A stretch of DNA of 64,000 nt, taken from the IMG/VR virus record IMGVR_UViG_3300015263_001568, positions 16,100 through 80,099 of that record; one strand, written 5' to 3'. This DNA is from a virus. Both the position numbers and the translations under genes were made by a program. The first letter of the stretch is position 1, and every line of letters starts with the position of its first letter. The notes under the pieces were generated by a model. It was not told the origin of the DNA. It saw only the letters and a program-made list of their open reading frames with translations, and did no database searches. Positions 1,377 to 64,000 of this stretch are shown here, piece after piece.

Positions 1377-2212
1377 CCTTCGTACTTCCGCAAAATGTCT
1401 TGTATGGACGACTTGAACTCGCTTACGCGGCCAAGTAGCAAGTCCGTCAAGTTGATTTCGTGGTTGTATTTGTTGGATTTGAACACACCGGTTAGCGTGT
1501 GGATGTCGCCAGGATTAAGCTGCCGACGTTCGGCGAGCGCATCCAAGTAAGCAGCGCTCAATCGATAGCTCTCGGTCACCGAGCCCGTACCATGATCACT
1601 AGCTGCTATAGACTTGCAGAGGTCGTCTAGCGCTTCGCCTAGACCGTCGGCTTTAGGCACAGGCACAATGGCATAACCGAAATATTCTGTGTATGGGTCT
1701 TGGCGCAGCTTGAAAAACACACCGCCATCGTTGGCTCGAAGCAGACTCTGGATCTTGCGATTCGGGCTGCTGGATGGCTTGTCGGTAGACCACCAGCATC
1801 CGACGAAGACCATGCCTTCAAACTTCAAGCCACGATGCAGCGGCTTTTCCTTGCCCTTGTACGAGTGGCGCTCCAATCGAACGTCGCCCGTGTCTTTGTC
1901 CTTTTTCCAGCGAAAGCCTGGAGGAGGATTATCCTCAATTTCACGGATCAGCTCGGTCACTACATCGCCTACCAGCATGCCAGTTGTAGCCAGCATGCGG
2001 CAGACTTGGAGCTTCAGTTCTTCAGGAATGTAGGGGTGCTCTGCTTGGCGCACCGGAACGTTGCAGCTTAAATTTTCAAGCCACTCGATGACCCTTTCCC
2101 GTGCCAAGCCTAGCTTGTATATCCACGGAAAAATCATCGTCGCCAGGACGTGCGCAATATCGCGCGTCCCGGCTTCCCGGTACACTGCTCCGGCGTATCG
2201 AATACGTAGCAT
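1373..2212 (-). CDS. Hypothetical protein with N-terminal IRYAGAVY tag (possible virion-internal protein)
   Basis: 279 aa; GGAGG RBS upstream; N-terminus carries the same motif as ORFs at 55-64 kb. Confidence 0.7.
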   Translation of the reverse strand: MLRIRYAGAVYREAGTRDIAHVLATMIFPWIYKLGLARERVIEWLENLSCNVPVRQAEHPYIPEELKLQVCRMLATTGMLVGDVVTELIREIEDNPPPGFRWKKDKDTGDVRLERHSYKGKEKPLHRGLKFEGMVFVGCWWSTDKPSSSPNRKIQSLLRANDGGVFFKLRQDPYTEYFGYAIVPVPKADGLGEALDDLCKSIAASDHGTGSVTESYRLSAAYLDALAERRQLNPGDIHTLTGVFKSNKYNHEINLTDLLLGRVSEFKSSIQDILRKYEG

Positions 2213-30439: not shown

Positions 30440-30943
30440 TTGAGCCCGCGTATCGCCATCTCGACTACTGGCTACCCCGTCAAGACGGGTGTGGCAACGG
30501 AGATACAGGTTGGTAGCCTCCGTCACCTTCTACAAGCCGCGGAGAGCCTCGCTGAGCAGCCCTACCGGCTTGTGGCTATCTACCCCTTTGGCCAACCTCG
30601 AAAAGCCGTATACGACGTCCTAGACAGCCTGGAGAAGTCCCTTTGCTCTGCCAAGGTGCTGGTGGTCTGCCGGCACGGCGCGCAGGCCATAGTGCCCGAC
30701 TTCCTTCAGCCGCACCAACGGCTCCGGCGGCCAAACGGGCACATCGATGTCATGGTCCACGTTGACCGTGACTTGGCGTGGGAGCCGCCCACGAATCTTT
30801 CGCTCGACATCCATCCGACGACAGGGCGATTCAGCCGCTGGGCTATTCAACAAGGCTTGGTGCCGATCGTTCTGCGCCGGATAACGTCTGTTCAAAAGTG
30901 CAAGGACCTCTACAACCTTCTAACCGCTGAGGCAGCTCTATGA
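30440..30943 (+). CDS. Hypothetical protein
   Basis: AAGGAG 9 nt before the TTG at 30440; ATGA overlap with nrdJ. Confidence 0.6.
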   Translation: MSPRIAISTTGYPVKTGVATEIQVGSLRHLLQAAESLAEQPYRLVAIYPFGQPRKAVYDVLDSLEKSLCSAKVLVVCRHGAQAIVPDFLQPHQRLRRPNGHIDVMVHVDRDLAWEPPTNLSLDIHPTTGRFSRWAIQQGLVPIVLRRITSVQKCKDLYNLLTAEAAL

Positions 30944-36900: not shown

Positions 36901-37545
36901 GGCATCGCGCCATTGTTCACGCAAGACACGCCGGTCGGGCATATCCATGTTGCCATTCGGCATCATCCTGACAATCATCAACCGTACGACATTTTCGTCG
37001 TGAGTGGCAAAGGCAACGTCGGCGCTGATGTGCAGGCATTGGCACGATTGATGTCGATGATCATGCGGTGGCCCAACAACGCACGCATCAATCAGACCAC
37101 GCGACTGGAAATGATTCATCATCAGCTGCAAGGGATTGTCGGCCACGGCCAAGTGGGCTTTGGCCCCAATGCTGTCGTCAGCTTGCCCGATGGTATCGCT
37201 CGGTCCATCCGGCGATACCTCGAAGGTGAGTACCCGCAAACTGTACCGGCCGATACACTTGACCCCGCCCTGAAGACTGTTTTGGCTAAGCTGATACAGC
37301 ATCAAGGCAAAGACACCACGCTAGAAGCCATCCTGAGCCTTCTGGAGGCGTCGGCGAGCAACAACAATGGGATGGCCCCAATAGAGCTGACGTCCGCTGA
37401 CGGCGCCTCTGAGGCGCTGCATTGGGACGTGCCGAACGACTTCAGCTTCCCCTACGACATGTGCCCTAGCTGTGGGCGGACGACGCTGCTACGGATACCT
37501 GGTAAGTGCGCAGATTGTAAGGAATGTGGATATTCTGCGTGCTAA
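30940..37545 (+). CDS. nrdJ: Class II (B12-dependent) ribonucleotide reductase with three inteins (~970 aa after splicing)
   Basis: TLFNCYV, QGG|SRRGA, TNP|CGEQ, TIAPTG, SISK|TVN; C-terminal TSCPD-like domain (SLPDGIA) and zinc ribbon; no nrdB seen in the window. Confidence 0.93.
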   Translation: MIQATYQQRIMLDRYAQKDPHAKPKEGDLVIVKMTRSFSLDGEEITSRELGQITEVTNGGGPARYTVELENEIVADLDRSRVEVIVEKTPEDIWQRLANGICKAEFLYLSNPPDSLAWQHIQYQLDQAVLPDQWKPIREFRDKVYSALSRNEFIPAGRIQVGLGREDLTLTLFNCYVLPRPEDSRHGITRRWGEMFEIFARGGGIGFDVSSMRPAGAPVAKVSGRSSGAISWMEQWSQVTGEVEQGGCFSGNTRIATTKGLIRAEDLANRIDAGAPHCVYTHSRPPRHVTHVFRNGQKRFFRVTTKRGYEIEVTGDHKMGVLKEGRIETVPLKHLSVGDNVLLLLPKCQFPEKSAVELSAIDYEKPKMSTTLNEDVRFPITLNGKLAYVLGYMYGNGSVIMGKKVTWSSPKGISMSVPTSREDIACKLQDYILDCFGVVAEMEPGDGACVNVKLYSRIVVEWLNTNGLLKKKAADIRVPEQIFHAPETVVSSFVSGYFDADGSDRGIKGGYGFDSISKGMLQDVQKILASFGIAAKLRPEDRSSTGWSTLYRLSVTGPVFKERFMDFARWSMKAQRHTSRRDTNMYPMEAFKSCQVDPKLYKGLVAISYDVVSYAAVSRVLDRAGDEGLGGSEQAAKMDALLNVLPDAIDSIEDVGMMDAFDFEVDEVHMLSGDGFYTSNSRRGATLFGIAPWHPDVERFIEVKSERSAFRMSGDELLQSLNPEIMEQFGAQLRKIFVGKEDAASISRSKDLIKNANISVLFTEAFMDAVERDDYWDFVFPDTSDPEYDAIWHGDIEAWRALGKPVIHYGTKKARDLWYRLIDRAWASGEPGVLFVDRMNEMSNSWYYAPIECTNPCVTGDSLIYTSRGLITVDDLMAERTQPQYLVDSRFGYEPTFSEGTKFWCSGEKPIYRLETKEGYTIRATADHKIMTSRGWVQLAKLKEGDKVHIANRGGAFGKEGTLEFGRVLGWFIGDGYFTGEKAILDFYGDKHQLADTFVGYVQDLVGHDKDYNPQYNITGYTVEARDLVTIQSERLYQMLHEFGITEDTKLRVPKIVQRGTADMQRGFLQALFDADGSVQGSNKNPTTVIRLTSISDDLLIGVQQLLLNFGIACRIYWERRPAGYRKLPDGKGGLKRYWCQAYHELEISKANLQVFADEIGFLRDVHQGKLRTRLAAYIRPPQAEKFTARVFRIESDGVEKVYDVTVHNTHSFVSSGICLANCGEQSLPANSVCNLGHINLAQFVRASSENFPTSSRTSEDAQRAFNLPHFRDVVATCVRFLDNVIDVENFFIPAVEERQRAERRVGLGILGYGELLVRLGLRYGSDEAVDFTHWLFQQLAEASYRASVDLAKDRGEFPLFDAEKFLQSGFMKGMPSEVRDAIREHGIRNVTLNTIAPTGSVGTAVGTTTGIEPYIALNWLARSRVGEAAEKANVMEKLEEKFGERSNWPDYFVTIANITPSEHVRTQAAAQRWIDSSISKCVTGDTLIATTDGLIRIASLHQGEAADSFRDAELEVASVGPNQKTSAFYYGGPRTVKKVVLHSGHTVKGTENHRLLVGTVDGLRWVRMDQIQEGDLVAARYGADIWSSQPSKFADFSPSQKYGNQKSVKHPIEMTEDLAWLLGAYAAEGHTTQSTWTITITNSVEAVLQKAVAVWESEFGVAARITRQSGKCPGVEVASKEIVEFFDYLGCGHRSNEKRIPEVVLRSPKPMVLAFLQGLFLDAYTTDGTLTKWAICLNSNGMLDDLQAILTNLGVIHSRISKYNPDYDKHYDEVYACGLDAQKLMSMVPFMEPDKKARADAILAKDLSSCINKADIVPVDRRALHELIPHGKRKAFGAALRNVNTTFPSRHTIERFAAAYPNALPDYVRTILDSDLHFSPVMSIADDGVQEVFDLSVPDNHAFVGNGIVNHNTVNLPQSATIEDVSEAYLEMYRQGCKGGTVYRDRSRDRQVLYTLDEQPAIVEELTTAEFEEAAPEGCLRPRLSVGIAPLFTQDTPVGHIHVAIRHHPDNHQPYDIFVVSGKGNVGADVQALARLMSMIMRWPNNARINQTTRLEMIHHQLQGIVGHGQVGFGPNAVVSLPDGIARSIRRYLEGEYPQTVPADTLDPALKTVLAKLIQHQGKDTTLEAILSLLEASASNNNGMAPIELTSADGASEALHWDVPNDFSFPYDMCPSCGRTTLLRIPGKCADCKECGYSAC
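31681..32979 (+). mobile_element. Intein 1 (433 aa, LAGLIDADG-type) at QGG|SRRGA
   Basis: Starts CFSGNTRI, ends FYTSN before Ser; LGYMYGNG and GYFDADG motifs. Confidence 0.92.
33508..34605 (+). mobile_element. Intein 2 (366 aa, LAGLIDADG-type) at TNP|CGE
   Basis: Starts CVTGDSLI, ends ICLAN before the catalytic Cys; LGWFIGDG and ALFDADG motifs. Confidence 0.93.
35383..36678 (+). mobile_element. Intein 3 (432 aa, LAGLIDADG-type) at SISK|TVN
   Basis: Starts CVTGDTLI, ends IVNHN before Thr; LGAYAAEG motif. Confidence 0.93.
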
Positions 37546-49065: not shown

Positions 49066-50514
49066 GTGCTAGGACTGTTCAAGCACAAAATGTTTTCCCT
49101 CAGCTTGGGTCCAACATCGCGGCACCAGAACGGTGCGCCGCTGACGAGCCACCTCCCAGAACGCCAAACACGCGGTCTAGACGAGGCTGTAGGCTTGCAA
49201 GGACCCCGGAAGGCCCGATACTCGCGCTGGTTCAACACCGGCCGCTGGTGGCGCCGCTGCCCCGAGCAGATAGCCGTGTGGCTGGAAACCGTACCCGCTG
49301 CGGGCGCCACCATTCTCGGAATCGCCACACTCAATCGAGAGCCAGTAGGCCGCACCACACTTCTCAACCGCTGGAAACCACACCAGTATCTACAGTCCAC
49401 CCGCGCTTTCTACTGGGATCTGAATGACGCGGAGCACGTCCGTGCACTGTTCCAGACGATGCGTCACCTTGGCGCCATGCAGGCCGGCATCGAAGCACGG
49501 CTGCCACGGCATGGACTACAGGGTCACGAACGCCGTGAGCTGTGCCGCAGTCCCATGCCCCACTTGTGGACTCGCCTGGGCGATATAGTCAATGGGCATG
49601 AAATCGTTGAACTAATTGAGAAAACCCACGAAGGGCGAACACCCGAGCGGCTGTACCGCGTGTACCGCGAGCAGCATACGAACGGTGGGCTGAAGACTTT
49701 CTTCAACGAAGCCACCGAGATATCCATCGCTCCCAAGGCAATAGAGCCCCTGCTAGGCGCCATCAGAAGCTTGCTGTGGGGCTTGCGCCATCGGCTGAAG
49801 GGACGACCACAGGATGAGGAAGCTCAAACCAGAGGGCGCTCTCCGCGCACCTGGATTGCCCGACCACATGCGCTGCTAGATCGCCTGGCCAGCCACTACC
49901 ATTGGCTGGACTTCATCCAGGAACCCTACCTGTGGGATATCAACGTACACAAAGCGTGCCGGCGGCTGCGACCGAACGCGCCAACACGAGCACGGTGGTG
50001 GGACCCCAAAGAGCCTGTCAGCTTGGCAGGCTACAGTGCCCGCTACCTGAACCGCGCACTCGCTTGTCACGCAGGTCAGTTGCGGTGGGATCCCTATTGG
50101 GGAAGTCAGTACCGGGCCGAAGAGGACGCGGCACGAGCAGTGATGGAAGGTTGGCAGCAAACCATTGTGTTGCTGATGAACCTCGCACTCGTGCTGGTGC
50201 TGCTGCGCCGTACGCGGCAACCGAAGAAACCAGCTGAAAGCTTTCTACGACCGCGCCGGTTAACGCATGTTGGCCAGTGCATTCGCATCAATTCGCGTGC
50301 GCGAGGACCGCCTAGAATTGCGCATGCCCATATGCCGTGCAAGAGCCGCGTTTGCGGCATGGATAGGTCTGTCCTTCGCTATATTTTTACCCGATCAGCG
50401 GCTTCACCTGCCATCAGAAGTACAATTTACGCCGATGCGGATCACGCCGGTAGGCCGGATGATGTCGCACTTTTTTGCCGGCAGCGTCTTGACCTTCGTT
50501 TTTTGTTTCGATAA
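49066..50514 (+). CDS. Hypothetical protein (Arg/Trp/His-rich; start uncertain)
   Basis: Only long ORF in the interval; no recognisable motifs. Confidence 0.5.
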   Translation: MLGLFKHKMFSLSLGPTSRHQNGAPLTSHLPERQTRGLDEAVGLQGPRKARYSRWFNTGRWWRRCPEQIAVWLETVPAAGATILGIATLNREPVGRTTLLNRWKPHQYLQSTRAFYWDLNDAEHVRALFQTMRHLGAMQAGIEARLPRHGLQGHERRELCRSPMPHLWTRLGDIVNGHEIVELIEKTHEGRTPERLYRVYREQHTNGGLKTFFNEATEISIAPKAIEPLLGAIRSLLWGLRHRLKGRPQDEEAQTRGRSPRTWIARPHALLDRLASHYHWLDFIQEPYLWDINVHKACRRLRPNAPTRARWWDPKEPVSLAGYSARYLNRALACHAGQLRWDPYWGSQYRAEEDAARAVMEGWQQTIVLLMNLALVLVLLRRTRQPKKPAESFLRPRRLTHVGQCIRINSRARGPPRIAHAHMPCKSRVCGMDRSVLRYIFTRSAASPAIRSTIYADADHAGRPDDVALFCRQRLDLRFLFR

Positions 50515-53002: not shown

Positions 53003-53779
53003 ATGGCTCTTAATCCTGGAGTCACTGCCCCCGGCGCAGCGGTATTCGCCAAGTACGACATGGCGCGTAGCCGCTTCGAGCACCGATGGGCATACGACAT
53101 CGAGGCCGGGGTCAACATCCTCGAAGAGGGTTCGCTGCTGGTACGCAAGGCCGGCGCGGGCACGACCGAGGTTGTGGCCCCATCTGCTGACGCTGCTGGT
53201 GAAGTGCCCCTGGGCATCGCACTACACGGCGCCATCAATGCGGTCACCTTCACCAAGGTGATCAATGCAACCGTTCCGGCGGTTGCTCCGCTGACCATCA
53301 ACACGGGTCTGACCAACATCACGACCTACGGTGCGGCTCCGCAGGTGCTGGCATACGACAACACCAGCGCCGCGTATCGTGTGACGGTGGTTGGTGCACC
53401 TGGTGCCAACCAGGTCGGCGTGACGCTCGCCAGCGGTCTGCTGACGGCAGATGCCGGTCTGGCCGGCCACAGCATGACCTTCACCATCCAGTGGACCCTG
53501 ACGGCCCTGGAGTCGCAGCTTCTGCTGCGCGAGTCTCACATCAACCGCGGTGCTGAGGCCCTTTTCGGCCAGATCATCGTGGGCTGGGGACAGTGCGAGG
53601 TGTTCACCACGATGTACGACGCCGGTGCGACGTATGCCGTGGGCGATGTTCTCGACCTCGGTGCGGGTGGCATCTTCACCAGCACTGCCCGTGCTGTGAA
53701 CAACGTTGCATTTGGCCGCGTGACCAGCGTTCCCACAACCGACGACCCCTACCTGGGCGTCTACTTCATCACGCCGTAA
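53003..53779 (+). CDS. Putative capsid decoration / cement protein
   Basis: Directly upstream of the MCP; Ala/Gly/Thr/Val-rich; strongly biased codons; ends GRVTSVPTTDDPYLGV. Confidence 0.65.
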   Translation: MALNPGVTAPGAAVFAKYDMARSRFEHRWAYDIEAGVNILEEGSLLVRKAGAGTTEVVAPSADAAGEVPLGIALHGAINAVTFTKVINATVPAVAPLTINTGLTNITTYGAAPQVLAYDNTSAAYRVTVVGAPGANQVGVTLASGLLTADAGLAGHSMTFTIQWTLTALESQLLLRESHINRGAEALFGQIIVGWGQCEVFTTMYDAGATYAVGDVLDLGAGGIFTSTARAVNNVAFGRVTSVPTTDDPYLGVYFITP

Positions 53780-53792
53780 GGAGAAGCTGAGC

Positions 53793-55019
53793 ATGTCCGT
53801 ATTCGCTAAGAAGAAGACGGCCACCGCTGCTCCCCGGCTGGTGGACCGACAGGGTAATGATGTGGCGGATGGATTTTCCTTCCGCCGTAATCCCCGCAGC
53901 GGCTCGATCATGCGCGCCGGTACGGCTGGCAGCCTCGCCCCGCAGGGCGGCTCCCGCCTCGTTGGCGCCAATGGCGAGTACAATGCGTACAGCAAGCAGC
54001 AGCTCGTCGAAATCATCGATGGTCTGCTGTCGCAGGCAGCGAGCGGCGACGTTCGCCTCGACACGGGCGTTAGCCAGATCATGCAGCAGCGCATGGCGGC
54101 TCCCCGTGGCGTGACGATGGCGCCGAGTAACACCTGGAACCAGGAAGGTCACCTGGTTCACGCCGCGCTCGCGGATCGTTTCCCCGAGCACGGTGGTCCG
54201 TTCCACGTCCTGGGTGAAGTCTTCACGGACCAGATTTCGGAGACGATGGGCCGGCTGGGCTTCACCAACAAGATTTTCGCGCAGCAGGACATTCCTGAGC
54301 AGGGCACGGCGCGCGTTCGTGTTCGCCAGAAGGATGTCGTGGCGTGGGTGATGATGGCCGACGGTCACACCGCCGAGTCCAAGGTTCGCCAGCGCTACGT
54401 CTACCCGAAGGCGTTCGACATCAATGCCCTCATCATGATCTACGAGGCCGACATCCACGAAGCCGGCAGCGCGATCATCGAGGACAAGTACAACGACGCG
54501 CTCGAACAGACGATGGTCCGTGAGGACAACATCTCCAAGTTCCTGCTCGACCAGGCGGCGCCCTCGACCAACGACGTGATCGCGTTCAACGCCTTCACTC
54601 CGTCGGTCTTCGCCGAGCTGCGCGACCAGGTGTGGCGTTGGAGCCTCCCGGTTCCGCACGCCCTGATGAGCCGCGATCTGTGGACTGACCTCTTTGCCGA
54701 TGCTGACTGGCAGCGTTGGTACTCGCCGATCGAGAAGCACGAGTACGCCGTCGAAGGCAAGCTCGGCAAGCTCGCCGACGTCGAGATCATCACCGACGGG
54801 TTCATCTACGACACCTTGCGGGTGCTTCAGCCCGGCGAGGTGTACTTCCTTTCCGCTCCGGCCACACTGGGCATGAAGTCCAACTTCACGGCTCTCCAGA
54901 GCGAGATGATCAACCAGCACATGCTGGGTCGCAATGCGCGCGGCTGGTTCCTCGCGCAGCGTGAGGCACTCACCCTGATCAACTCCCGCGGTGTGTCCAA
55001 GGGCCAGAAGGTGGTCTAA
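53793..55019 (+). CDS. Major capsid protein (HK97-type fold, large-phage family)
   Basis: 408 aa; AAGGAG RBS; very strong codon bias; followed by a terminator; helix-E-loop-spine-helix pattern (ISETMGRLGFTNKIF...YVYPKAFDINA...LEQTMVREDN). Confidence 0.8.
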   Translation: MSVFAKKKTATAAPRLVDRQGNDVADGFSFRRNPRSGSIMRAGTAGSLAPQGGSRLVGANGEYNAYSKQQLVEIIDGLLSQAASGDVRLDTGVSQIMQQRMAAPRGVTMAPSNTWNQEGHLVHAALADRFPEHGGPFHVLGEVFTDQISETMGRLGFTNKIFAQQDIPEQGTARVRVRQKDVVAWVMMADGHTAESKVRQRYVYPKAFDINALIMIYEADIHEAGSAIIEDKYNDALEQTMVREDNISKFLLDQAAPSTNDVIAFNAFTPSVFAELRDQVWRWSLPVPHALMSRDLWTDLFADADWQRWYSPIEKHEYAVEGKLGKLADVEIITDGFIYDTLRVLQPGEVYFLSAPATLGMKSNFTALQSEMINQHMLGRNARGWFLAQREALTLINSRGVSKGQKVV

Positions 55020-55153: not shown

Positions 55154-55498
55154 ATGAAATACCCCAACAGCATCATGGTCAAAGGCCACCGTTACGAAAA
55201 GGTTACGGCAGCCGAACCTGGAACTGCGTTGTCAAATGCTGCGCTTGGTGCCGCCGAGGATTTGTCAGCCATTGCTGTGTTGGCAGCTGCGCTGGAGAAG
55301 CAGATGCAAAACCTAGGTGACATGCCACATCATACACCGCAGATAAAAGCGCTCTCAACGCTAACATTGAGAGCCGCTACGCATACCGTTAAATCGCTAG
55401 AATCCGAAATCTCCGGTATTTTGAAGCAGCTTTCAGACATGAAGAAACGCGCTATGGATGTAGCGGACACGCTTCGCCACCAGATGCCGCAGCGCTGA
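55154..55498 (+). CDS. Putative virion-internal protein (IMVKGHRY tag)
   Basis: AAGGA RBS; shared N-terminal motif. Confidence 0.65.
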   Translation: MKYPNSIMVKGHRYEKVTAAEPGTALSNAALGAAEDLSAIAVLAAALEKQMQNLGDMPHHTPQIKALSTLTLRAATHTVKSLESEISGILKQLSDMKKRAMDVADTLRHQMPQR

Positions 55499-55514
55499 TT
55501 AAAGGGATAATTGG

Positions 55515-57866
55515 ATGGCAAACGTACCCCGACGTGGCGGAATTCAGACGCAGCTCATGGTCCAGAAAAATCTTGAAAAAGATATTGACTGGGCACGTAA
55601 GCTACAAGAGCAGGAAGAAGCTCAGCGTCTGAAGGATGAAGAAAAGGCCAAAAAGAAAGAAGAGAAGGAACGCCAAAAGGCGGAGAAAGGACCCGGGATG
55701 CTATCCAAGTTGTGGAAGAAGCTGAAGGGCTCTGCCGACCTAACACTCGACAACCTACGCCGCGCCTTCCCTAAGCTTTCCGCCGTCGATGCGGAGCGCC
55801 TCTTCGATGACATCCAAGACGCCCAGGACTCCGCAGAAGTGTTGGCCACGCTACAGTTCGCCAACCGGATGCTGGCAGGTCATGGCGTAGAAGGCATGCG
55901 GGCTGAAGGGGTCACGTTGGGCCAGCCCTACAACGACCAAGTAGCCCTCTACGTCAACATGGGCGACGACAGCGCGCAGACGCTCCTCTTTGGAACCGAG
56001 GACGGTCGCTGGTACCTGATGTCCTATGCGGACTTCGAGGGGCAACAGGGGTCTCAGGAGAGCCAGGAGAGGCACGCTGCGCGAGAAGCCTTCATCCACC
56101 AAAATCCAGACGGCATCTCGGTCGAGATGTTTGAAGACGATACACTCTGCTTGGTGCACCAAGCGGCTGACTTGGAAGACGCCGAGCTGATGGCTCAGGA
56201 ATGGGAAGCCTCTGGGATCCCCGAAGCGGACACACCACCATCATTGGAGTTCGAGGAATTCGAGGAAAACAACATGATACCTGCCAGCATTCGTTACCAC
56301 GGCGCGCGCTACGAGTTGGTCGAAGCCAAAGTCCAAGGATGGTTCGGCTTCCAGCAAGATCCCAAGACGCTCACCGAAATGTGGATTAACGCTCACAAGG
56401 ATGCTGACGTTGTAGGCGCTGTAGATGAAGCGTTCGGCTTATCCGGCATGAAGTCTACAGAAGCGAATCCACTGCGTGAGAAAATCATGCAGGTGGCAGC
56501 CATTCCCACCGAGATGGCCATGACGGCCATTTCCAAAGCGTTCGCCAAAGCGTCTCGGTTGCCCAATCCGTCGATGGCCAGCCAGCTCGACAAATATGGC
56601 GTGTCGATCAACCTGATTGACGATTCCATCGGCGTGGTCGGCGCCGCTGCTCTGTTGCAAGCGCTGGGCAAGGACGCTAGCCAATATGTGGCGGCTGCCA
56701 AGGATGCCATGGAAGAGTGGGTCGCCAGCTACGGTGAATTGTCGGCAAAGTCCGACAAGGTGAAGACGATCGACCCAATCAAGCTGACGCAGCAGTTCAA
56801 TGACGCCATCGACAGCGCGCTGCAAAAGTCCACCAAGGATGTGGAGAAGCGCCTGCAAGCGTTGAAGCCGGCTGGAGAAGCCAAGGCCGCTTCGTCGGAG
56901 CGCATCATGTACCGTGGTGCCGTGTACGTGCGCACGGCCGTCAGCTATTGGTTCGGCATGGACGACGAGATGGAACAGCACATGGGGATCGACGAAATCG
57001 AACTCCCCGATGGCGTTCCCGAGTTGTCCGCGGCAGACCAAGAAAAGTTGCGAGAATCCTACCGCGACAAGCTGCGCAGCTATGCACCGGATCCGGAGTT
57101 TTTCCTTGACGTGGTAAAAAGTGCCGTAGACCGCGCCCTCACGGCGATGTATGAAGAAGCAGGCGCAACCCCTTCGAAGCATTACCTGATTAAGAACATC
57201 GGCGATGACTATGCCCATGAGGAATGGTTCGGCTTCATCGGCGGTGTACCCGAGTACAACTTCAAGGACGAGTACGGCCCAGAATTGGAAGCGGACCTTG
57301 GGATGTCGGAGGAAGACATCTGGAGCGTGCTAGACAATGCTGCTGATGAAGGCGCCACTGCCGAAGCAGATGCGCTTGAAGAAGCTGTCTACGATGCGTT
57401 CAAGCAGGCAAAGGCTGATATTCTTGAAGAGGCCAAAGAAATGGCTTCGATGTCCGATGAAGATGAGGACGACGTCTATGAAGACCCGCGGCAGACCAAG
57501 CTGAAGTTCGAGGGTCGCGCAAAGTCCCGGCGAGTACGGCACGCTGCACCGGCTGGGTATGTGGTGGAAATGTTCGAGGAACGCCGTGATCCGGAAGAGC
57601 CGGAAGACTACGAACAGCTACAGTATGCTGAACCCCAGCATTACGACACGATCGCAGACATCGCGCGCGACTGGACTAAGGGAAACTGGGAGGGCCTGTG
57701 GCGTGAAGACATCGCAGAAATGACCGATGGAGTTGCCATCTATAGCTATTTGGACGAGGACTACCACTTGCCATACGATCGACATTACCAGTTGTTCATC
57801 ACGCGAGAAGATGGACAGCCGCTTTCAGAAGACGAGTACGACCAGATTGACAAAGCGTTCTCCTGA
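55515..57866 (+). CDS. Modular acidic polyprotein-like putative virion-internal protein
   Basis: 783 aa; two tag copies (IRYHGARY, IMYRGAVY); RHAA linkers; C-terminal domain duplicated in the next gene. Confidence 0.7.
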   Translation: MANVPRRGGIQTQLMVQKNLEKDIDWARKLQEQEEAQRLKDEEKAKKKEEKERQKAEKGPGMLSKLWKKLKGSADLTLDNLRRAFPKLSAVDAERLFDDIQDAQDSAEVLATLQFANRMLAGHGVEGMRAEGVTLGQPYNDQVALYVNMGDDSAQTLLFGTEDGRWYLMSYADFEGQQGSQESQERHAAREAFIHQNPDGISVEMFEDDTLCLVHQAADLEDAELMAQEWEASGIPEADTPPSLEFEEFEENNMIPASIRYHGARYELVEAKVQGWFGFQQDPKTLTEMWINAHKDADVVGAVDEAFGLSGMKSTEANPLREKIMQVAAIPTEMAMTAISKAFAKASRLPNPSMASQLDKYGVSINLIDDSIGVVGAAALLQALGKDASQYVAAAKDAMEEWVASYGELSAKSDKVKTIDPIKLTQQFNDAIDSALQKSTKDVEKRLQALKPAGEAKAASSERIMYRGAVYVRTAVSYWFGMDDEMEQHMGIDEIELPDGVPELSAADQEKLRESYRDKLRSYAPDPEFFLDVVKSAVDRALTAMYEEAGATPSKHYLIKNIGDDYAHEEWFGFIGGVPEYNFKDEYGPELEADLGMSEEDIWSVLDNAADEGATAEADALEEAVYDAFKQAKADILEEAKEMASMSDEDEDDVYEDPRQTKLKFEGRAKSRRVRHAAPAGYVVEMFEERRDPEEPEDYEQLQYAEPQHYDTIADIARDWTKGNWEGLWREDIAEMTDGVAIYSYLDEDYHLPYDRHYQLFITREDGQPLSEDEYDQIDKAFS

Positions 57867-57876
57867 GAGGCTCAAG

Positions 57877-58440
57877 ATGTACAAGCACATTCGCTACCAC
57901 GGCCGTCTGTACCAAGCTGTATCGAGCGGCTGGCTCTACGCCTTGATGCACAAGTACCCCGGCGCCTTTGACCTGTTGGAGCCCTACCTCGACAATCCAC
58001 CCACCGATGAAGTCGAGATCCAGCAGTTGACACAAGAAGCGCGCGACTGGCAGGAAGCGTGGGATGCTGGGCGTAAAAATGTGATCTGGCAGCCGCGCAC
58101 TTCACAAAAGTCTCGCCACGCTGCTTCTGGCTATTTGGTGGAGGTTGTCGAAGAGCGGCGCGATCTGGAAAATCCAGAAGACTACGAGCAAATTCAATAC
58201 ACCGATCCGGAACACTTCGACACCATCGAAGACATCATCGAAGTCTGGACTCGTGGAAACTGGGTTGGAATGTGGGGGCAAGACATCTTCGAGCAGAACG
58301 GCAATTTGGCTATCGTGAGCTACGATGCTGAAGACTATGGCCAGCCATACGTTAGTCACTTCATGATGTTCGTTGAGCGCGAAGACGGAAAGCCAATGTC
58401 TGACTCCGAGATGGTCCAGTTTGAAAAAGCCTTCTCCTGA
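57877..58440 (+). CDS. Two-module putative virion-internal protein (IRYHGRLY tag)
   Basis: GAGG RBS before ATG 57877; C-terminal module paralogous to the end of 55515..57866. Confidence 0.7.
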   Translation: MYKHIRYHGRLYQAVSSGWLYALMHKYPGAFDLLEPYLDNPPTDEVEIQQLTQEARDWQEAWDAGRKNVIWQPRTSQKSRHAASGYLVEVVEERRDLENPEDYEQIQYTDPEHFDTIEDIIEVWTRGNWVGMWGQDIFEQNGNLAIVSYDAEDYGQPYVSHFMMFVEREDGKPMSDSEMVQFEKAFS

Positions 58441-58451
58441 AAGGAAGCACG

Positions 58452-58769
58452 ATGAAAACTAAAAAGAAAGAACAGAAAGAGCGGCTTTACTCTGTGCGCT
58501 GCTCATACACTGTTGATGTGGTCGTAAGCGCCGCCAGTAGCGATGCCGCGCGAAAGGTTGCGGAGAAGCACGCCGCCGGATCTGAATATGACGCAGACAG
58601 AGAGCAAAAGAGCGGAAAATGGGTAGCGGAAACCGCAGTACAAATAGAGTCTCTACAGGAATTGCCAGCATCGTGGTACCCAGAGGATCAACCATACACA
58701 AAGTACGGAAATCCGTATGACCCTGAGTATCCATACAGTGAGCCTACAATCGAAGAATACCTAAAGTGA
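58452..58769 (+). CDS. Hypothetical protein (paralog of the N-terminal module of 58782..59471)
   Basis: AAGGA RBS; LYSVRC...DQPY...TIEEYL. Confidence 0.65.
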   Translation: MKTKKKEQKERLYSVRCSYTVDVVVSAASSDAARKVAEKHAAGSEYDADREQKSGKWVAETAVQIESLQELPASWYPEDQPYTKYGNPYDPEYPYSEPTIEEYLK

Positions 58770-58781
58770 TAGATACCTGCT

Positions 58782-59471
58782 ATGCCACTCTACGACGTTG
58801 AATGCACAGTTTCGATTCATCTTGTGGTGGAGTCTGCCAATATTGGCGCTGCTAAGGAAATTGCGGTGCAATCTGCCGAGACTGAATATGATGATCTACG
58901 TGTCGTAGACTGGTACGTCAGTGGTGCGCATCGTATTCGTGGCGCTAGCGATATTGGGCCTACCTGGAACATGGGTGACCAGCCCTATGATCGCCCTGGT
59001 GGGTACAAGTCTGAAAATACCATTGGCGAGATTTTGGGAAGAAGGTCTGCACACTATCGTCGCGCCGCGGATGACCCCTACGGTCAAGGTCTCGACCTGA
59101 AAAATCTGGAAGGTGAAAAGGGCGGACCCGCCACCACACCAGGATTTTATGGCCGCTATCCAGCCATCATGGATGCACTGTCCAATGCGTGGGTGGAGCT
59201 TGAAGCTGTACAGCATCCGGCCATGGATTGGTCGGAATTCGAGAAGCGCTACATGCTGAAAATCCGGCAGCTGGATGACGTCATCGAAGCCGGATCTGCG
59301 GATGCTCTCAAAGGTCGCCTCGTACCGTACTTGGTGGCGATGGGATATGATAAAGACGCAGCTGCACGTGTTGAACCGGAAGTCATCGACTTTGTAGAGA
59401 CGCTGAAGACGGAGGAAGCCACCGAACGCGAGCGTGACGAATACGAATATCTCAAGGACATGGGGAGATGA
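58782..59471 (+). CDS. Two-module hypothetical protein
   Basis: LYDVEC...DQPY...TIGEIL, then an RRAA linker and an acidic module. Confidence 0.65.
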   Translation: MPLYDVECTVSIHLVVESANIGAAKEIAVQSAETEYDDLRVVDWYVSGAHRIRGASDIGPTWNMGDQPYDRPGGYKSENTIGEILGRRSAHYRRAADDPYGQGLDLKNLEGEKGGPATTPGFYGRYPAIMDALSNAWVELEAVQHPAMDWSEFEKRYMLKIRQLDDVIEAGSADALKGRLVPYLVAMGYDKDAAARVEPEVIDFVETLKTEEATERERDEYEYLKDMGR

Positions 59472-60223
59472 CACTCACCCTCAGCATGGCGCTTTTGATG
59501 GTCCTCTGCATCTACGCCATCAAGTGGCTCGGCGCACGACAGCAAGCATCGCACCTACCACATTTGCTGGTGCTGGGTAGCTTTGGTAGCATTCTATTGT
59601 TAGGCGTGCTGGCGTTGACGTTCATCTACGACCGTTACGAGCAGACGGATAAAGAGCGCATCGGTGCCGTGAAAAAAGCAGTGGTCAAGTCACCGTGTCC
59701 GCAATATGGGCAGGTGGCTATCAAGTACCGTGGACAGACATGGTGCACGGATGAGATGCAAGTCACGCATCTCAAAAATGGCCAAGTTAGTCTGCTGCTC
59801 ACACCCTCAGGTAGCCCACCTGACGCCACCTTGTTCAAGCTGAACATTGCACGCAACAAGCCGCCACACCTTCAGGGTATAGCGGCTGCTGAACCAGAGC
59901 GCAAAGACCGCTCGGGCTTGCTGAATCGCTACGCTGAGATTGTGTACTTCTTGGCGTTGGTGCTGGGCGTGCTTAGTAGCTTCTACATGAGCTGGTACGA
60001 AGAGCGCAAGAAAAATCCCGAACTGAAATTTGACCACAACCAAGTTGTTGTGTCGTTCATTCTAGCCGTGTTGGTGTACGTCAGCGTCTACAGTACCATC
60101 GAGAAGGACAAGGGCATTGCCACAACCGGATTGTTGGCTTGCTTTCAGAACGGGTTTTTCTGGCAATCCATCATGAAAAACCGTATGGGCGGCGAGTCTA
60201 AAGAAGAAGGAAAGGCAGCGTGA
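59468..60223 (+). CDS. Multi-pass membrane protein
   Basis: At least four long hydrophobic segments. Confidence 0.7.
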   Translation: MTLTLSMALLMVLCIYAIKWLGARQQASHLPHLLVLGSFGSILLLGVLALTFIYDRYEQTDKERIGAVKKAVVKSPCPQYGQVAIKYRGQTWCTDEMQVTHLKNGQVSLLLTPSGSPPDATLFKLNIARNKPPHLQGIAAAEPERKDRSGLLNRYAEIVYFLALVLGVLSSFYMSWYEERKKNPELKFDHNQVVVSFILAVLVYVSVYSTIEKDKGIATTGLLACFQNGFFWQSIMKNRMGGESKEEGKAA

Positions 60224-60543
60224 TGAAAAAGCACACTATCATGGTCAACGGACATCGCTACGTTAGTTCTGCGTATGATTCCCTCGGTGACGTAGTAATG
60301 GACATTTTTGTTTACCTCACAGAAGAGGAATTAGAAAAAGTCGCACGCAAATGGGCGGCTAGCATAGCAGACATTGAAATTGTGATGTTTGAATGGATGG
60401 ACCAGCACCGCAGTGGGGCAAACGACCTGTTCGACATCCTCCGCGAAGTGCTTACTAGCAGACGCCGTAAAGAAATCTTGGAGCGCTCCAATATTTCTGA
60501 GTACAGCGCCGACCTACCGCAGCAATTTTTGCACAAACCGTAG
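60223..60543 (+). CDS. Putative virion-internal protein (IMVNGHRY tag)
   Basis: Coupled start; shared motif. Confidence 0.65.
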   Translation: MKKHTIMVNGHRYVSSAYDSLGDVVMDIFVYLTEEELEKVARKWAASIADIEIVMFEWMDQHRSGANDLFDILREVLTSRRRKEILERSNISEYSADLPQQFLHKP

Positions 60544-60549
60544 GTAGTT

Positions 60550-60972
60550 ATGGCTGATCCAGTTAGCATTGGCACGTTGTTGGCCGCTCTAGCCGCCGGT
60601 GGAAGTGCTGGCGTCGCCGCGCTGCGAAAACCAGAAGCGGCATTACCCCAAGCACCTCTTGAGCAAATCGCGCTCGTCAACGATACCGTCCTGCACTTCA
60701 AGAGCATTTTCCAAAGCCTGACCAACGAGGAAGTGGCGGCTACGGTGAAGGCTGTGGAGCGCATTGCGGAAATCGTAAACCGTGAGGACCCCGACAATCC
60801 TGGACAGAAATTGGTCTGGAAGTCAACGTCCATGCAGAAAATTCTGCGGCAAATGGCGGAAAACGACGAGCAGCAAACGCGCATCTTGAAGTCGCTTGCT
60901 GATTCCGTATCCGCCATTAATGAACGCCTACAATACCTAGAGATTTTCGTCAAAATGCAGCAGGGCAAGTAG
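60550..60972 (+). CDS. N-terminally anchored coiled-coil protein (possible lysis/holin-like)
   Basis: Hydrophobic N-terminus (IGTLLAALAAGGSAGVAAL) followed by coiled coil. Confidence 0.5.
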   Translation: MADPVSIGTLLAALAAGGSAGVAALRKPEAALPQAPLEQIALVNDTVLHFKSIFQSLTNEEVAATVKAVERIAEIVNREDPDNPGQKLVWKSTSMQKILRQMAENDEQQTRILKSLADSVSAINERLQYLEIFVKMQQGK

Positions 60973-60973
60973 A

Positions 60974-61399
60974 ATGGCGAAAGCACCTCCTGGACCGCTG
61001 AGTGAAACCGCAGCCCAGCCCGTTGGCATGATGGAAATGATCGACTCGGAAATTGCAGAACGGCGTGCCATCAAATATGCCGAATGCAACAACGATGAGA
61101 TGCTGCACGCTGTCAACGGTCGCGGACGTCTGCTGAACGCGTTACTTCAGCAGACCACCAATTTGAGAAAAATCACGACTGCCAGCATGCCGAAAATATC
61201 AGCGGACATGGCAGTGCGCTTAAAGAGTGCCTTCGAGGCCGCAGACGCGAAGAAGGCGGAAGACGTCACACTGGACACGTTGGAAGCTAGCGTGACGCAC
61301 ATTCATGAAACGGTAACTCAAACATCATCCGACGACGATTTTCAAGAGCAGCTGTCCGCCCTGAAGCGTGATGCTGCATTGGCAGAAGAAAGCGAATGA
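60974..61399 (+). CDS. Hypothetical protein
   Basis: 141 aa; coupled to next gene. Confidence 0.6.
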   Translation: MAKAPPGPLSETAAQPVGMMEMIDSEIAERRAIKYAECNNDEMLHAVNGRGRLLNALLQQTTNLRKITTASMPKISADMAVRLKSAFEAADAKKAEDVTLDTLEASVTHIHETVTQTSSDDDFQEQLSALKRDAALAEESE

Positions 61400-61974
61400 A
61401 ACGCATTGCTCGCATACGCCATTGTCGCGACGAAGACCTAGACCCGCATCATGAGCTGCCGGTGGAAGATCAGCGGTGGTGTCTCTACAGTGATGATGGA
61501 AAGACATTGCGCGGGCGGCATAAAAATCGCCGTGATGCTAAAGACCAGGATCGCAACCTGCGAGGAAGATGGGGCATGAAAAAGACCAGCGTTACCGATC
61601 CACGCAAAGCCATTGCTGACAATGTAAAAGCCATTTCAGCTGATATTTTCAAGAGCACAAAGCGCATCGATGCCGACATCGGAGGCATGGTCACACTGGT
61701 GAAGCAATTTCCCAAGGCCATTACCGATGCGGAAAAGAAGCAGCTGGTAGAGGCACACAATGTCCTTCAGGATGCCATGGACAAGCTGGAACAGAGTGCG
61801 CAGCAGCATGAAGAAATATCCGTTACGTTAAGCAATACTCCAGCTCCAGCTGTGCAGGATGATGGTAATGGTACTGTGGAACAGAAGGCTGCCAGCTGGA
61901 AGCGTCGTCCAGTGCGCCGACCTGCACCTGAAATGATCCGCGTCAACGGCGCAATCTACCGTCGTCTGCGCTAG
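61396..61974 (+). CDS. Modular protein (WCLYxxDGK module, helical module, C-terminal IRVNGAIY tag)
   Basis: N-terminal module recurs inside the 62389 ORF. Confidence 0.65.
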   Translation: MKRIARIRHCRDEDLDPHHELPVEDQRWCLYSDDGKTLRGRHKNRRDAKDQDRNLRGRWGMKKTSVTDPRKAIADNVKAISADIFKSTKRIDADIGGMVTLVKQFPKAITDAEKKQLVEAHNVLQDAMDKLEQSAQQHEEISVTLSNTPAPAVQDDGNGTVEQKAASWKRRPVRRPAPEMIRVNGAIYRRLR

Positions 61975-61983
61975 GAGTACGAT

Positions 61984-62382
61984 ATGCACCCTCGAACAAT
62001 CAAGCACCAGGGCAAGGTTTACGTTCTCGATCGCAAGGCAACGGCGAAGCTTCGTCGCAAAGCCGCTACATCGGAGGAAGTTCTTGATGAGCTTCTAGCT
62101 GAAGTACGCGATGCCAGCGATAAACTTCACGGACGCAAGGACAAGGACAGCCTTGTGGATGGCATCGAGTTCCTGAAAAACGCAGTGGATAATACCACTA
62201 GCAGTATTCAGGAGATTATTGACGAGGCTGAGCGATATATCTCTGACCTAGAAGACGCGTCGGATGCTCTGGACAATCTGTTGTTCGATCTTAGTTCCGA
62301 CGACGTGTTCGACTTCAATGACCCTGACGACGTAATTGACGTGCAGGATCAAGCTTACGATGCGGTAGAGAAGTTTGGGTAG
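61984..62382 (+). CDS. Acidic helical protein with IKHQGKVY tag
   Basis: AGGAG RBS; tag then RRKAA linker. Confidence 0.65.
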   Translation: MHPRTIKHQGKVYVLDRKATAKLRRKAATSEEVLDELLAEVRDASDKLHGRKDKDSLVDGIEFLKNAVDNTTSSIQEIIDEAERYISDLEDASDALDNLLFDLSSDDVFDFNDPDDVIDVQDQAYDAVEKFG

Positions 62383-62388
62383 GTTGAC

Positions 62389-64000
62389 ATGCTATTCAAC
62401 CTGTCTGATATTGGCGTTCCGGAAGCTGAGCAGCTCAGCTGGCTCACCGATATCTTTGCGTCATATCGAGAGCTGACCTACCAGTCGTCGATTCCAAGTG
62501 CGTTTGACATGCTGTACGAAAATGCGCTGGACAAGAATTTTGACCGGCGTGTTGATGTTCCAGCTTCAGACCTACACACGTTGGAGGCCGCGATACGAGA
62601 TGCGCTTTCCAACCGTGAACTTAGTCTGGATGAAGCATGGGATGTGGTGCAGACCGCTGAAAATTCCGATTATCCCGTGTACGATCCGCAAACGCTACGC
62701 GATGCTGAAGAGCTGTTGCAGGCAGGTGACGACCCCTCCTATTTTGGAGAATTTCAAGGCCCCCTAGACAAGCTCACCAAGCTTCTACGGCAGCACAGCG
62801 GATCCACCATCCGCACCGCGGTTATCAAGAAGTGTCGGAAGCAAGACATGGATGACCGTCCTGCCAGTGAGCAAAAATGGTGCCTCTATACCCATGACGG
62901 CAAAAAGCTACTTGGACGGCATCCAACAGAAGAAGCCGCTAAAAAGCAAGAGCGCGCCATTCACGTGCACAAAGGGTTTTTGAACGAAGGAGAAAAAATG
63001 CGGACAAAACATGCCGGCTACGATACCGATGAGTCGGTCGCCGACGAGCTGAAGCTGTACATGGATAACGAATCGGACCTGTATGACAACAAGTTGCGTT
63101 CCATCTATCCTGGTCTGGTGCGCAAGCTCGCCGCAGGACGTTACAACTCGGAGATGGCTGTGGCTGCCTTTGCCTATTTGGTAGAGCGCGGAGCTAAGAA
63201 GTACGCGCGCGAGTTCGGCACTTCTGAGCGTGAGTGGAGCCAAATGTTCCCCAAGAACATTCGCCAGATGGTAGCTACTGAGTACCGCGACGAATTTGAA
63301 TCAGAGGTCCGGAATCACGAGTACGATTTCGAGCAGTGGGTGCCGAAAAAGTACCAAGGTGTTGACTTGGCCGACATGTTGAAAAAGCGGTCTGATCTTA
63401 CAAAAGGTGCAACAATGCGAGAGCGAACGGCAAAGAAGTGGAAGTCTCTTCCTCGTGGGTGGAACAAGGAATCCATGAAGGATTATTGGGACAGCGTTGG
63501 TGGTAGCGTGAGCAAGTGTGTCAAGGGGCTGGAAGGTACCGACATCGATGACCCAGGTGCTTTTTGCGCCAGTCTCAAGGACCGCCTAGAAGGTTCAGGC
63601 TGGCGGCACGAGAAGCGCTCCAGTGCCGCACCGAAGTACATTAAGGTGGCTGGTCGCATCTACGTAGCGGAAGGCGGTCCCATTGATGCATCCGACCACT
63701 TCGATCAGCGCAAAATGGACGAAGAAGTCGTACAGTGGGCCTGTGACGACGACGTGCTGGATTACGACGGCAACATGGCGCTCAATCTGTCGACCGAGCT
63801 GAGTAGCTACGGCTATTCCGGTCGCGACGTGTACAACTTGTTGGAAGGCGTTGGTCATGATCTTCCGGAATTCGGCAGTGACGAATGGGAAGATATGGCT
63901 AACGACTTCCTCGGTTACCCGGAGCAGTACCTCTCGGCGGATAAGCTCACCCAGAATTCCGCACTTCCATCTGGTAGCTATGCTTTCGGATGGGACCACA
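62389..64000 (+). CDS. Modular polyprotein-like ORF (partial, runs off window end; absent from ORF track)
   Basis: Manual translation from ATG 62389 (MLFNLSDIG...) has no stop to base 64000; modules separated by IRTA, RTKHA, RERTA, EKRSSAA; contains the IKVAGRIY tag. Confidence 0.75.
   Translation, partial: MLFNLSDIGVPEAEQLSWLTDIFASYRELTYQSSIPSAFDMLYENALDKNFDRRVDVPASDLHTLEAAIRDALSNRELSLDEAWDVVQTAENSDYPVYDPQTLRDAEELLQAGDDPSYFGEFQGPLDKLTKLLRQHSGSTIRTAVIKKCRKQDMDDRPASEQKWCLYTHDGKKLLGRHPTEEAAKKQERAIHVHKGFLNEGEKMRTKHAGYDTDESVADELKLYMDNESDLYDNKLRSIYPGLVRKLAAGRYNSEMAVAAFAYLVERGAKKYAREFGTSEREWSQMFPKNIRQMVATEYRDEFESEVRNHEYDFEQWVPKKYQGVDLADMLKKRSDLTKGATMRERTAKKWKSLPRGWNKESMKDYWDSVGGSVSKCVKGLEGTDIDDPGAFCASLKDRLEGSGWRHEKRSSAAPKYIKVAGRIYVAEGGPIDASDHFDQRKMDEEVVQWACDDDVLDYDGNMALNLSTELSSYGYSGRDVYNLLEGVGHDLPEFGSDEWEDMANDFLGYPEQYLSADKLTQNSALPSGSYAFGWDH

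Follow-up and report, generated by a model that had tools for sequence, protein, structure and literature searches.

The stretch of viral DNA analysed here, a window of 64,000 nucleotides that spans positions 16,100-80,099 of the 80,099-bp IMG/VR record IMGVR_UViG_3300015263_001568, carries a major capsid protein gene followed on the same strand by a cluster of tightly spaced genes, and a short peptide, I-x-[YVH]-x-G-x-x-Y, recurs on the proteins encoded in this cluster. The original prediction had listed nine copies of this peptide, hereafter the tag, in eight open reading frames (ORFs) and had proposed that it loads otherwise unrelated proteins into the capsid. Each of the nine was found exactly where it had been placed, eight on the plus strand and one, read from 2203, on the minus strand (Table 1; numbering is that of the window unless the contig is named). 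The part of the contig not covered by the window adds two copies, at contig positions 402 and 9793 and both on the minus strand, and the whole contig thus has 11, all of them in long coding ORFs and none in any other reading frame. Six of the 11 are N-terminal, starting at residues 4-7, one is C-terminal and four are internal, and a profile search found no further, degenerate copies in the contig.

Table 1. Positions of the tag copies and of the main landmarks (bits, score against the tag profile; aa, amino acids).
Feature	Position	Strand	Bits	Remarks
Tag IRYAGAVY	2180..2203	-		residues 4-11 of 279-aa ORF 1373-2212
Tag IMVKGHRY	55172..55195	+	23.5	residues 7-14 of 114-aa ORF 55154-55498, first gene after the capsid gene; Pro at -3
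Tag IRYHGARY	56289..56312	+	20.5	residues 259-266 of 783-aa ORF 55515-57866, internal
Tag IMYRGAVY	56904..56927	+	13.6	residues 464-471 of 783-aa ORF 55515-57866, internal
Tag IRYHGRLY	57889..57912	+		residues 5-12 of 187-aa ORF 57877-58440
Tag IMVNGHRY	60238..60261	+		N-terminal in 107-aa ORF 60220-60543
Tag IRVNGAIY	61936..61959	+	14.8	residues 181-188 of 192-aa ORF 61396-61974, C-terminal, 4 residues before stop
Tag IKHQGKVY	61999..62022	+	17.9	residues 6-13 of 132-aa ORF 61984-62382
Tag IKVAGRIY	63640..63663	+	18.9	residues 418-425 of ORF 62389-64000 (runs off contig end), internal
Conserved virion structural protein gene	53003..53779	+		phrog_16710; directly before the capsid gene; untagged; 256 aa
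Major capsid protein gene	53793..55019	+		phrog_2522, E 2e-46; untagged; anchor for finding relatives
Post-capsid cluster	55154..64000	+		12 co-directional, tightly spaced ORFs; eight tag copies in seven ORFs
Terminase large subunit, portal, then truncated tagged ORF	contig start	-		
IGI.WD module loci	L016:11510-12841, L018:12768-13142, L020:13666-14562, L019:11172-14921, L006:12186-13448			

A scan of the full proteome, which had been proposed as a check, placed the motif well above background: 5000 shuffled proteomes contained 0.34 copies on average and 4 at most (analytic expectation 0.32), compared with the 11 observed. When all patterns with four fixed residues were scanned without bias, I.Y.G..Y came second, behind the AT-hook repeats of one protein, with a Bonferroni-corrected p of 0.13 in this genome alone; taken by itself, the motif in this genome is suggestive rather than conclusive, and we regard it as settled because it is replicated in relatives. 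The codons vary from copy to copy, which shows that the conservation is at the protein level and rules out a DNA-level repeat as the source of the motif.

Recurrence of the tag in relatives and its consensus

When the capsid protein was used as a single query, no match was found in IMG/VR, and an alignment of metagenomic relatives was required, with which 25 IMG/VR loci were retrieved, including 10 kb on each side. The regular expression alone found about 100 copies in these 25 loci, nearly always in long ORFs on the strand of the capsid gene, and a profile built from 79 non-redundant copies detected 158 copies at 6 bits or more, as opposed to none in reversed sequences. The profile also brought out conserved positions that are absent from the regular expression, namely a proline at position -3 (82% of copies) and an alanine or valine at +10, in addition to a lysine or arginine at +1 and [RVK][LRK] at +8/+9. 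The resulting consensus is a peptide of about 16 residues, P-x-x-I-[KR]-[VY]-x-G-x-x-Y-x-[LR]-[AV]. The suggestion that Ala or Ser commonly follows the motif was therefore right only in part, as the residues straight after the tyrosine conform to x-[LRK]-[AV]-[AED].

In the relatives, about one gene in three carries the tag over the 10 kb on either side of the capsid gene. The tag becomes sparser as the capsid protein diverges, from 2-3 copies per locus at 42-46% identity to none at 37-39%, and the hairpin tag is missing altogether from the 221 kb of a lineage whose capsid protein is 49% identical. It is near certain that the motif is real, conserved and mobile. The tag looks undescribed: no family in Pfam or PHROGs covers it among the window proteins, its profile gave only a chance-level match in the PDB, with no relative among solved structures, and no precedent for it was found in the literature that we searched.

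Carriers, placement and predicted shape

After the tag had been masked, the 79 non-redundant tagged proteins fell into 25 unrelated groups, the largest of which is a web of mosaic proteins with shuffled modules. The idea of a portable peptide shared by otherwise unrelated proteins is thus borne out. Among the carriers that Pfam could name are an AAA_33 kinase with tags at residues 4 and 204, a pentapeptide-repeat protein with the tag ahead of its repeats, which resembles a DNA mimic, and a cREC_REC+DUF5661 protein; many others are orphans. A module of the form ...G..IGI.WD...F.P..L..G..VELEHG... recurs in the post-capsid clusters of all sub-lineages (Table 1) and is sometimes fused into proteins of more than 1200 residues; in L006, it corresponds to the DUF5661 match (residues 156-225 of a 421-residue protein). 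We found no paper that mentions DUF5661.

About half of the copies are found in the first 25 residues of the protein, and tandem tags follow one another at intervals of 16-22 residues, too short for an intervening domain. A profile of the tandem tag, searched against 1.84 billion representative proteins, returned 95 matches, 68 of them phage-type proteins of 58-796 residues with 38 unrelated bodies; the first tag falls within 12 residues of the start in 54% of the library matches, compared with roughly 5% expected for random placement, the latter being a rough estimate. A methionine is present at most 15 residues upstream of 22 of the 45 internal copies, or 49%, where chance would place one there for about 29%, an excess that hints at gene fusions or internal starts. 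In the window, an in-frame ATG at 56274 lies five codons before the first internal tag of the 783-residue ORF, with GAGGA upstream at a Shine-Dalgarno-like distance; this could be an internal start giving an N-terminally tagged product, or a by-product of glutamate codons. A T4-like cleavage motif was considered as a fixed part of the tag and rejected, being found in only 33% of copies. Tat, Sec and clamp-binding motifs were likewise rejected on our own reasoning that their consensus patterns are unlike the tag.

The beta-hairpin shape put forward in the original prediction agrees with the AlphaFold2 models. In a family of nine orthologues, the model has a hairpin at 27-30/33-36, charged disorder of about 40 residues at 37-75 and a well-modelled alpha/beta domain at 79-204. 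The model of the 114-residue protein encoded directly after the capsid gene has strands at 6-9 and 12-15, with a predicted local distance difference test score (pLDDT) of about 70, followed by two long helices, and here the x-G pair forms a two-residue turn. These helices, as modelled, would recall a small scaffolding protein. A Foldseek search with the modelled cargo domain gave no significant match.

Genomic setting of the tagged genes

Isolated phages, most of them jumbo phages, have capsid proteins that share only 28-30% identity with the one encoded here, and many metagenomic proteins share 78-32%; the structural protein encoded just upstream is 44-47% identical in relatives. The contig has no terminal repeat and ORFs run off both of its ends; these two end ORFs (62389-64000 and L002:1-411) are both tagged and convergent. 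It probably covers about one quarter of the genome of a huge phage, since one relative is complete at 349,793 bp with direct terminal repeats. The gene that immediately follows the portal gene carries one tag copy. The middle 53 kb, given over to replication, recombination and nucleotide metabolism (helicases, primase, clamp, exonucleases, a sigma-like factor and a 2201-residue ribonucleotide reductase), holds none.

The post-capsid cluster is itself a mosaic of shuffled modules. The 783- and 187-residue proteins have paralogous acidic C-terminal modules (57420-57863 and 58027-58437; 47% identity over 148 residues), the ORFs of 105 and 229 residues at 58452-59471 are paralogues (31%), and a 'WCLY' module (...KWCLY..DGK.LG.H....A..QE.A...) is common to the 192-residue (61402-61629) and 537-residue (62812-63054) proteins. 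This last module is 73% identical to that of a tagged protein of 103 residues in a relative (L005:15497-15808) and matches phrog_3684 weakly, and the modules that flank the tag at 63640 also occur in tagged proteins of relatives. No homologue of the 783-residue protein was found among 5.8 billion proteins in its length range, and the ESM Atlas look-alikes of the 187-residue protein were uninformative. A search of the plus strand from the capsid gene to the contig end found no terminator-like site. The untagged 251-residue ORF at 59468-60223, within the tagged cluster, has several hydrophobic stretches that resemble transmembrane helices.

Gene order in the relatives is well kept on one strand. 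The portal gene is followed by a few small genes, a gene for a protein of 565-780 residues and the head maturation protease gene (phrog_18299, E 5e-51); then come a tagged gene of about 290 residues, an untagged one of about 240, a tagged one of about 160-210 and one of about 350-390 that is sometimes tagged. The 256-residue structural protein and the capsid protein are next, succeeded by six to ten mostly tagged genes and by two conserved genes of about 450 and 500 residues, the second of which begins with a tandem Leu-variant of the tag; these two, at 450 and 504 residues, had no match in the isolated-phage collection. In G001-G003, the phrog_18299 gene precedes the capsid gene by about 6-7 kb, and each of the five whole records that were searched has this protease. 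The concentration of the tag around the capsid gene that had been proposed for this stretch is therefore seen both in the contig and in its relatives, where the cluster belongs to a head module with the maturation protease.

In the tagless lineage with the 49% identical capsid protein, five of the 19 scored ORFs at L016:11259-16920 begin with runs of arginine (MRHRRRR, MVRRRRR, MRRRRRF and similar), all of them just after the capsid gene, compared with none or one such ORF in each of the 25 other loci. That two different basic N-terminal peptides occupy the same slot suggests that the proteins encoded there need some form of address.

Three further observations concern genes away from the tagged cluster. 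The 2201-residue ORF (30940-37545) encodes the large subunit of a ribonucleotide reductase, broken up by endonuclease and terminase-intein-like segments, and it probably carries several inteins, given its matches to endonuclease and intein-bearing families. The terminase gene (L002:3068-5221) matches its PHROG family in two stretches. The ORF at 49066-50514 (482 residues, GTG start) is the longest there, has an odd translation rich in Arg, Trp and His and is overlapped by alternative ORFs; it may not be a real gene.

Candidate functions of the tag

The capsid-targeting sequence of phage T4, which the original prediction had taken as its model, is acidic and hydrophobic; on the internal proteins IPI-III and Alt, it was reportedly described by Mullaney and Black in 1996. 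With its help, a range of internal proteins enter the scaffolding core, and foreign proteins can be loaded as well (PMC3012670, PMC5694885). The tag resembles it as a short peptide shared by diverse proteins of a large myovirus-type phage and enriched at the N-terminus, in a lineage whose head module includes a maturation protease and a capsid gene, as seen in the relatives, and the cargo would in both cases include likely counter-defence proteins. In contrast, the two have no sequence resemblance, the present tag being a predicted basic beta-hairpin, with half of its copies internal, tandem or C-terminal, no consistent cleavage motif after it and dozens of carriers per genome instead of a handful. 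On the best reading, the tag might function like the T4 capsid-targeting sequence while differing from it in sequence and placement.

Two further systems invite comparison. Encapsulin cargo-loading peptides are short and conserved, are flexibly linked to unrelated cargo, dock inside a shell of HK97 fold and can be repeated. The combination of a short terminal peptide, a flexible linker and diverse cargo is found here as well, in the AlphaFold2 model and in the diversity of the bodies, whereas the encapsulin peptides have another consensus, are usually C-terminal and serve a cellular nanocompartment and not a virion. The ejection and inner-body proteins of SPN3US and phiKZ carry N-terminal propeptides of 80-130 residues that are cut at A/S/G-x-E (PMC5694885, PMC10052503). 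Those phages are likewise huge and pack many proteins into the head, N-terminal regions are presumed to do the targeting and a prohead protease is encoded in the same module, but their propeptides are specific to a paralogue family, whereas here a 16-residue module is common to unrelated proteins.

A different kind of likeness came from the library search, in which 12 of the 95 matches were Gram-positive surface proteins, several with an LPXTG-type anchor (P0088, P0097, P0118, P0120, P0161). Their repeats, which we take to be MucBP-like, contain the hairpin KPxEITYNGHxYRLV, nearly the same 14 residues as the tag (P-x-x-I-T-Y-x-G-x-x-Y-x-L-V), and score up to 19 bits with the tag profile. There, however, the hairpin is part of a repeat of about 80 residues that continues into a VTYVY strand, whereas the phage tags share the hairpin only. 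No Pfam match to MucBP was found in the window proteins, and one LPXTG surface protein searched against the PDB had no match. The likeness is probably convergence on a stable NG-turn hairpin.

Taking all possible partners together, we consider it quite likely that the tag is a docking element read by a common partner. More tentatively, and with appreciable doubt, we suggest that it might recruit cargo to the prohead and that the tagged proteins might be packaged, a reading that we favour because of the position of the genes, the precedent of T4 and the exchange of one tag for another in the sister lineage. The motif itself, its conservation and mobility, its N-terminal bias, the diversity of its carriers, its place in the head module and the model of a hairpin with a linker are shown by the data; a single partner, the location of that partner in the prohead and any cleavage or injection are inferred. 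According to such a model, the peptide of about 16 residues, which bears several basic residues, would fold into a beta-hairpin with a two-residue turn, probably only on binding. It usually stands 3-10 residues after the start methionine, where a flexible and often charged linker joins it to the rest of the protein, and it is also found in tandem, between modules and at C-termini. One common partner would recognise it as an address, the likeliest candidate being part of the assembling prohead, be it the inner surface of the capsid or the scaffold or core. The head would be loaded with a variable assortment of proteins, among them the kinase, the DNA-mimic-like pentapeptide protein and many orphans, for delivery with the DNA, and proteins with several tags may act as hubs.

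Several findings weigh against the prohead reading. Within the clade, 43 of 91 copies are N-terminal, itself a strong bias, but the remainder are internal, tandem or C-terminal, and a free N-terminus is thus not required, unlike in T4. Glutamate or aspartate at +11, where a T4-type protease would cut, is present in 33% of copies versus a background of 14%. Both features count against a strictly T4-type signal. In the 279-residue family (ORF 1373-2212), which is kept in two relatives, the motif aligns as an integral part of the protein, its glycine being an aspartate in one relative and the motif being degenerate in a genome otherwise without tags. Confidence in the hairpin is low, the two models giving it pLDDT values of about 36-41 and 66-72, and this would also fit an isolated peptide that folds on its partner. 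No head protease gene was found on this contig, presumably as it is a fragment, and the protease of the relatives had no match in the PDB.

The distribution of the tag over whole genomes has to be counted on the same side. Of the 24 confident copies in the complete 350-kb relative, about 8 are near the capsid gene, 8 at 174-181 kb and 4 at 218-219 kb; the other 4 are dispersed, with two towards the left end of the genome, one towards the right end and one at 261 kb. Two thirds of its copies are therefore outside the head module and only about one third within 10 kb of the capsid gene, and the cluster at 174-181 kb adjoins a DNA ligase gene, while in a second, partial relative a tagged cluster adjoins tRNA nucleotidyltransferase and DprA-like genes. 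The expected enrichment in late genes is only partial: tag density is indeed highest around the capsid gene, but most copies of the complete relative are found elsewhere. In T4, the internal-protein genes are likewise scattered away from the head genes, and tags outside the head module thus do not refute packaging.

The same distribution is what recommends, among the alternatives, a docking or 'sticker' peptide for a partner other than the capsid, such as a replication or takeover hub, a compartment or another tag, with multi-tag proteins as scaffolds and single-tag proteins as clients. We regard this as doubtful, although it would account for the small-ORF clusters, on both strands, beside the DNA ligase gene or near the termini, for the neighbours of the tagged genes in the partial relative, for proteins with tandem or multiple copies and long charged linkers, and for a tag that needs no free end. 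Against it stand the peak of tag density around the capsid and protease genes, the lack of tags in the replication half of the contig and the scattered genes of T4, which make dispersal compatible with packaging.

Still harder to sustain, and in our view improbable, is a nucleic-acid-binding beta-ribbon, in which the basic, aromatic hairpin would tether proteins to the phage DNA and could enter the head together with it, with no need of a protein receptor. Lysine and arginine are common at tag positions 1, 3, 8 and 9, Arg-rich N-termini are encoded in the corresponding gene slots of the sister lineage, and multivalency would suit such binding, but the invariant positions, being hydrophobic or aromatic together with Gly and Pro, point to a specific protein groove, many carriers have a strongly acidic overall composition, and the profile found no relative among solved structures.

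Slightly less probable again is that the tag has no common partner and that it is a stable structural starter, the hairpin with which many small domains begin and which duplication and the shuffling of modules have spread through a fast-evolving gene family. The 279-residue protein, in which the motif is integral in three genomes, the near-identical hairpin integral to the Gram-positive LPXTG repeats and the demonstrable shuffling of the cluster modules would all be expected from such an origin. However, the AlphaFold2 model parts the tag from the folded body by about 40 disordered residues, and the tag is found on unrelated Pfam domains, in tandem at a spacing too short for a domain and with a strong N-terminal bias, while in the sister lineage it is replaced by another shared N-terminal peptide. 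Finally, chance recurrence of a loose regular expression, which its fitting after the fact and the corrected p in this genome might have allowed, has a negligible probability given the in-frame excess over expectation, the empty reversed controls and the extra conserved flanking positions, and is refuted by the replication in relatives.

Returning to the prohead reading, a more far-reaching version of it, which we offer as unlikely but worth stating, is a multivalent 'sticker-and-spacer' code of a clade of huge phages, in which the hairpin would be a sticker, single on clients and repeated on long acidic hubs, that builds an injected internal head body of enzymes and DNA mimics. The sister lineages would then have swapped the sticker for an Arg-rich one, which would imply a co-evolving pair of address and receptor that might be re-used for foreign proteins.

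If the tag is indeed a prohead address, dozens of proteins would be loaded into the capsid, compared with a handful in T4, and the tag would mark which orphan genes encode injected first-strike proteins, such that a large block of phage 'dark matter' would become interpretable; it would also provide a compact handle of about 16 residues for the packaging of foreign proteins. Whatever the partner, a single peptide on about 5-10% of the genes of a huge phage points to a central hub, and the tag swap in the sister lineage represents a natural experiment through which the receptor might be found by co-variation.

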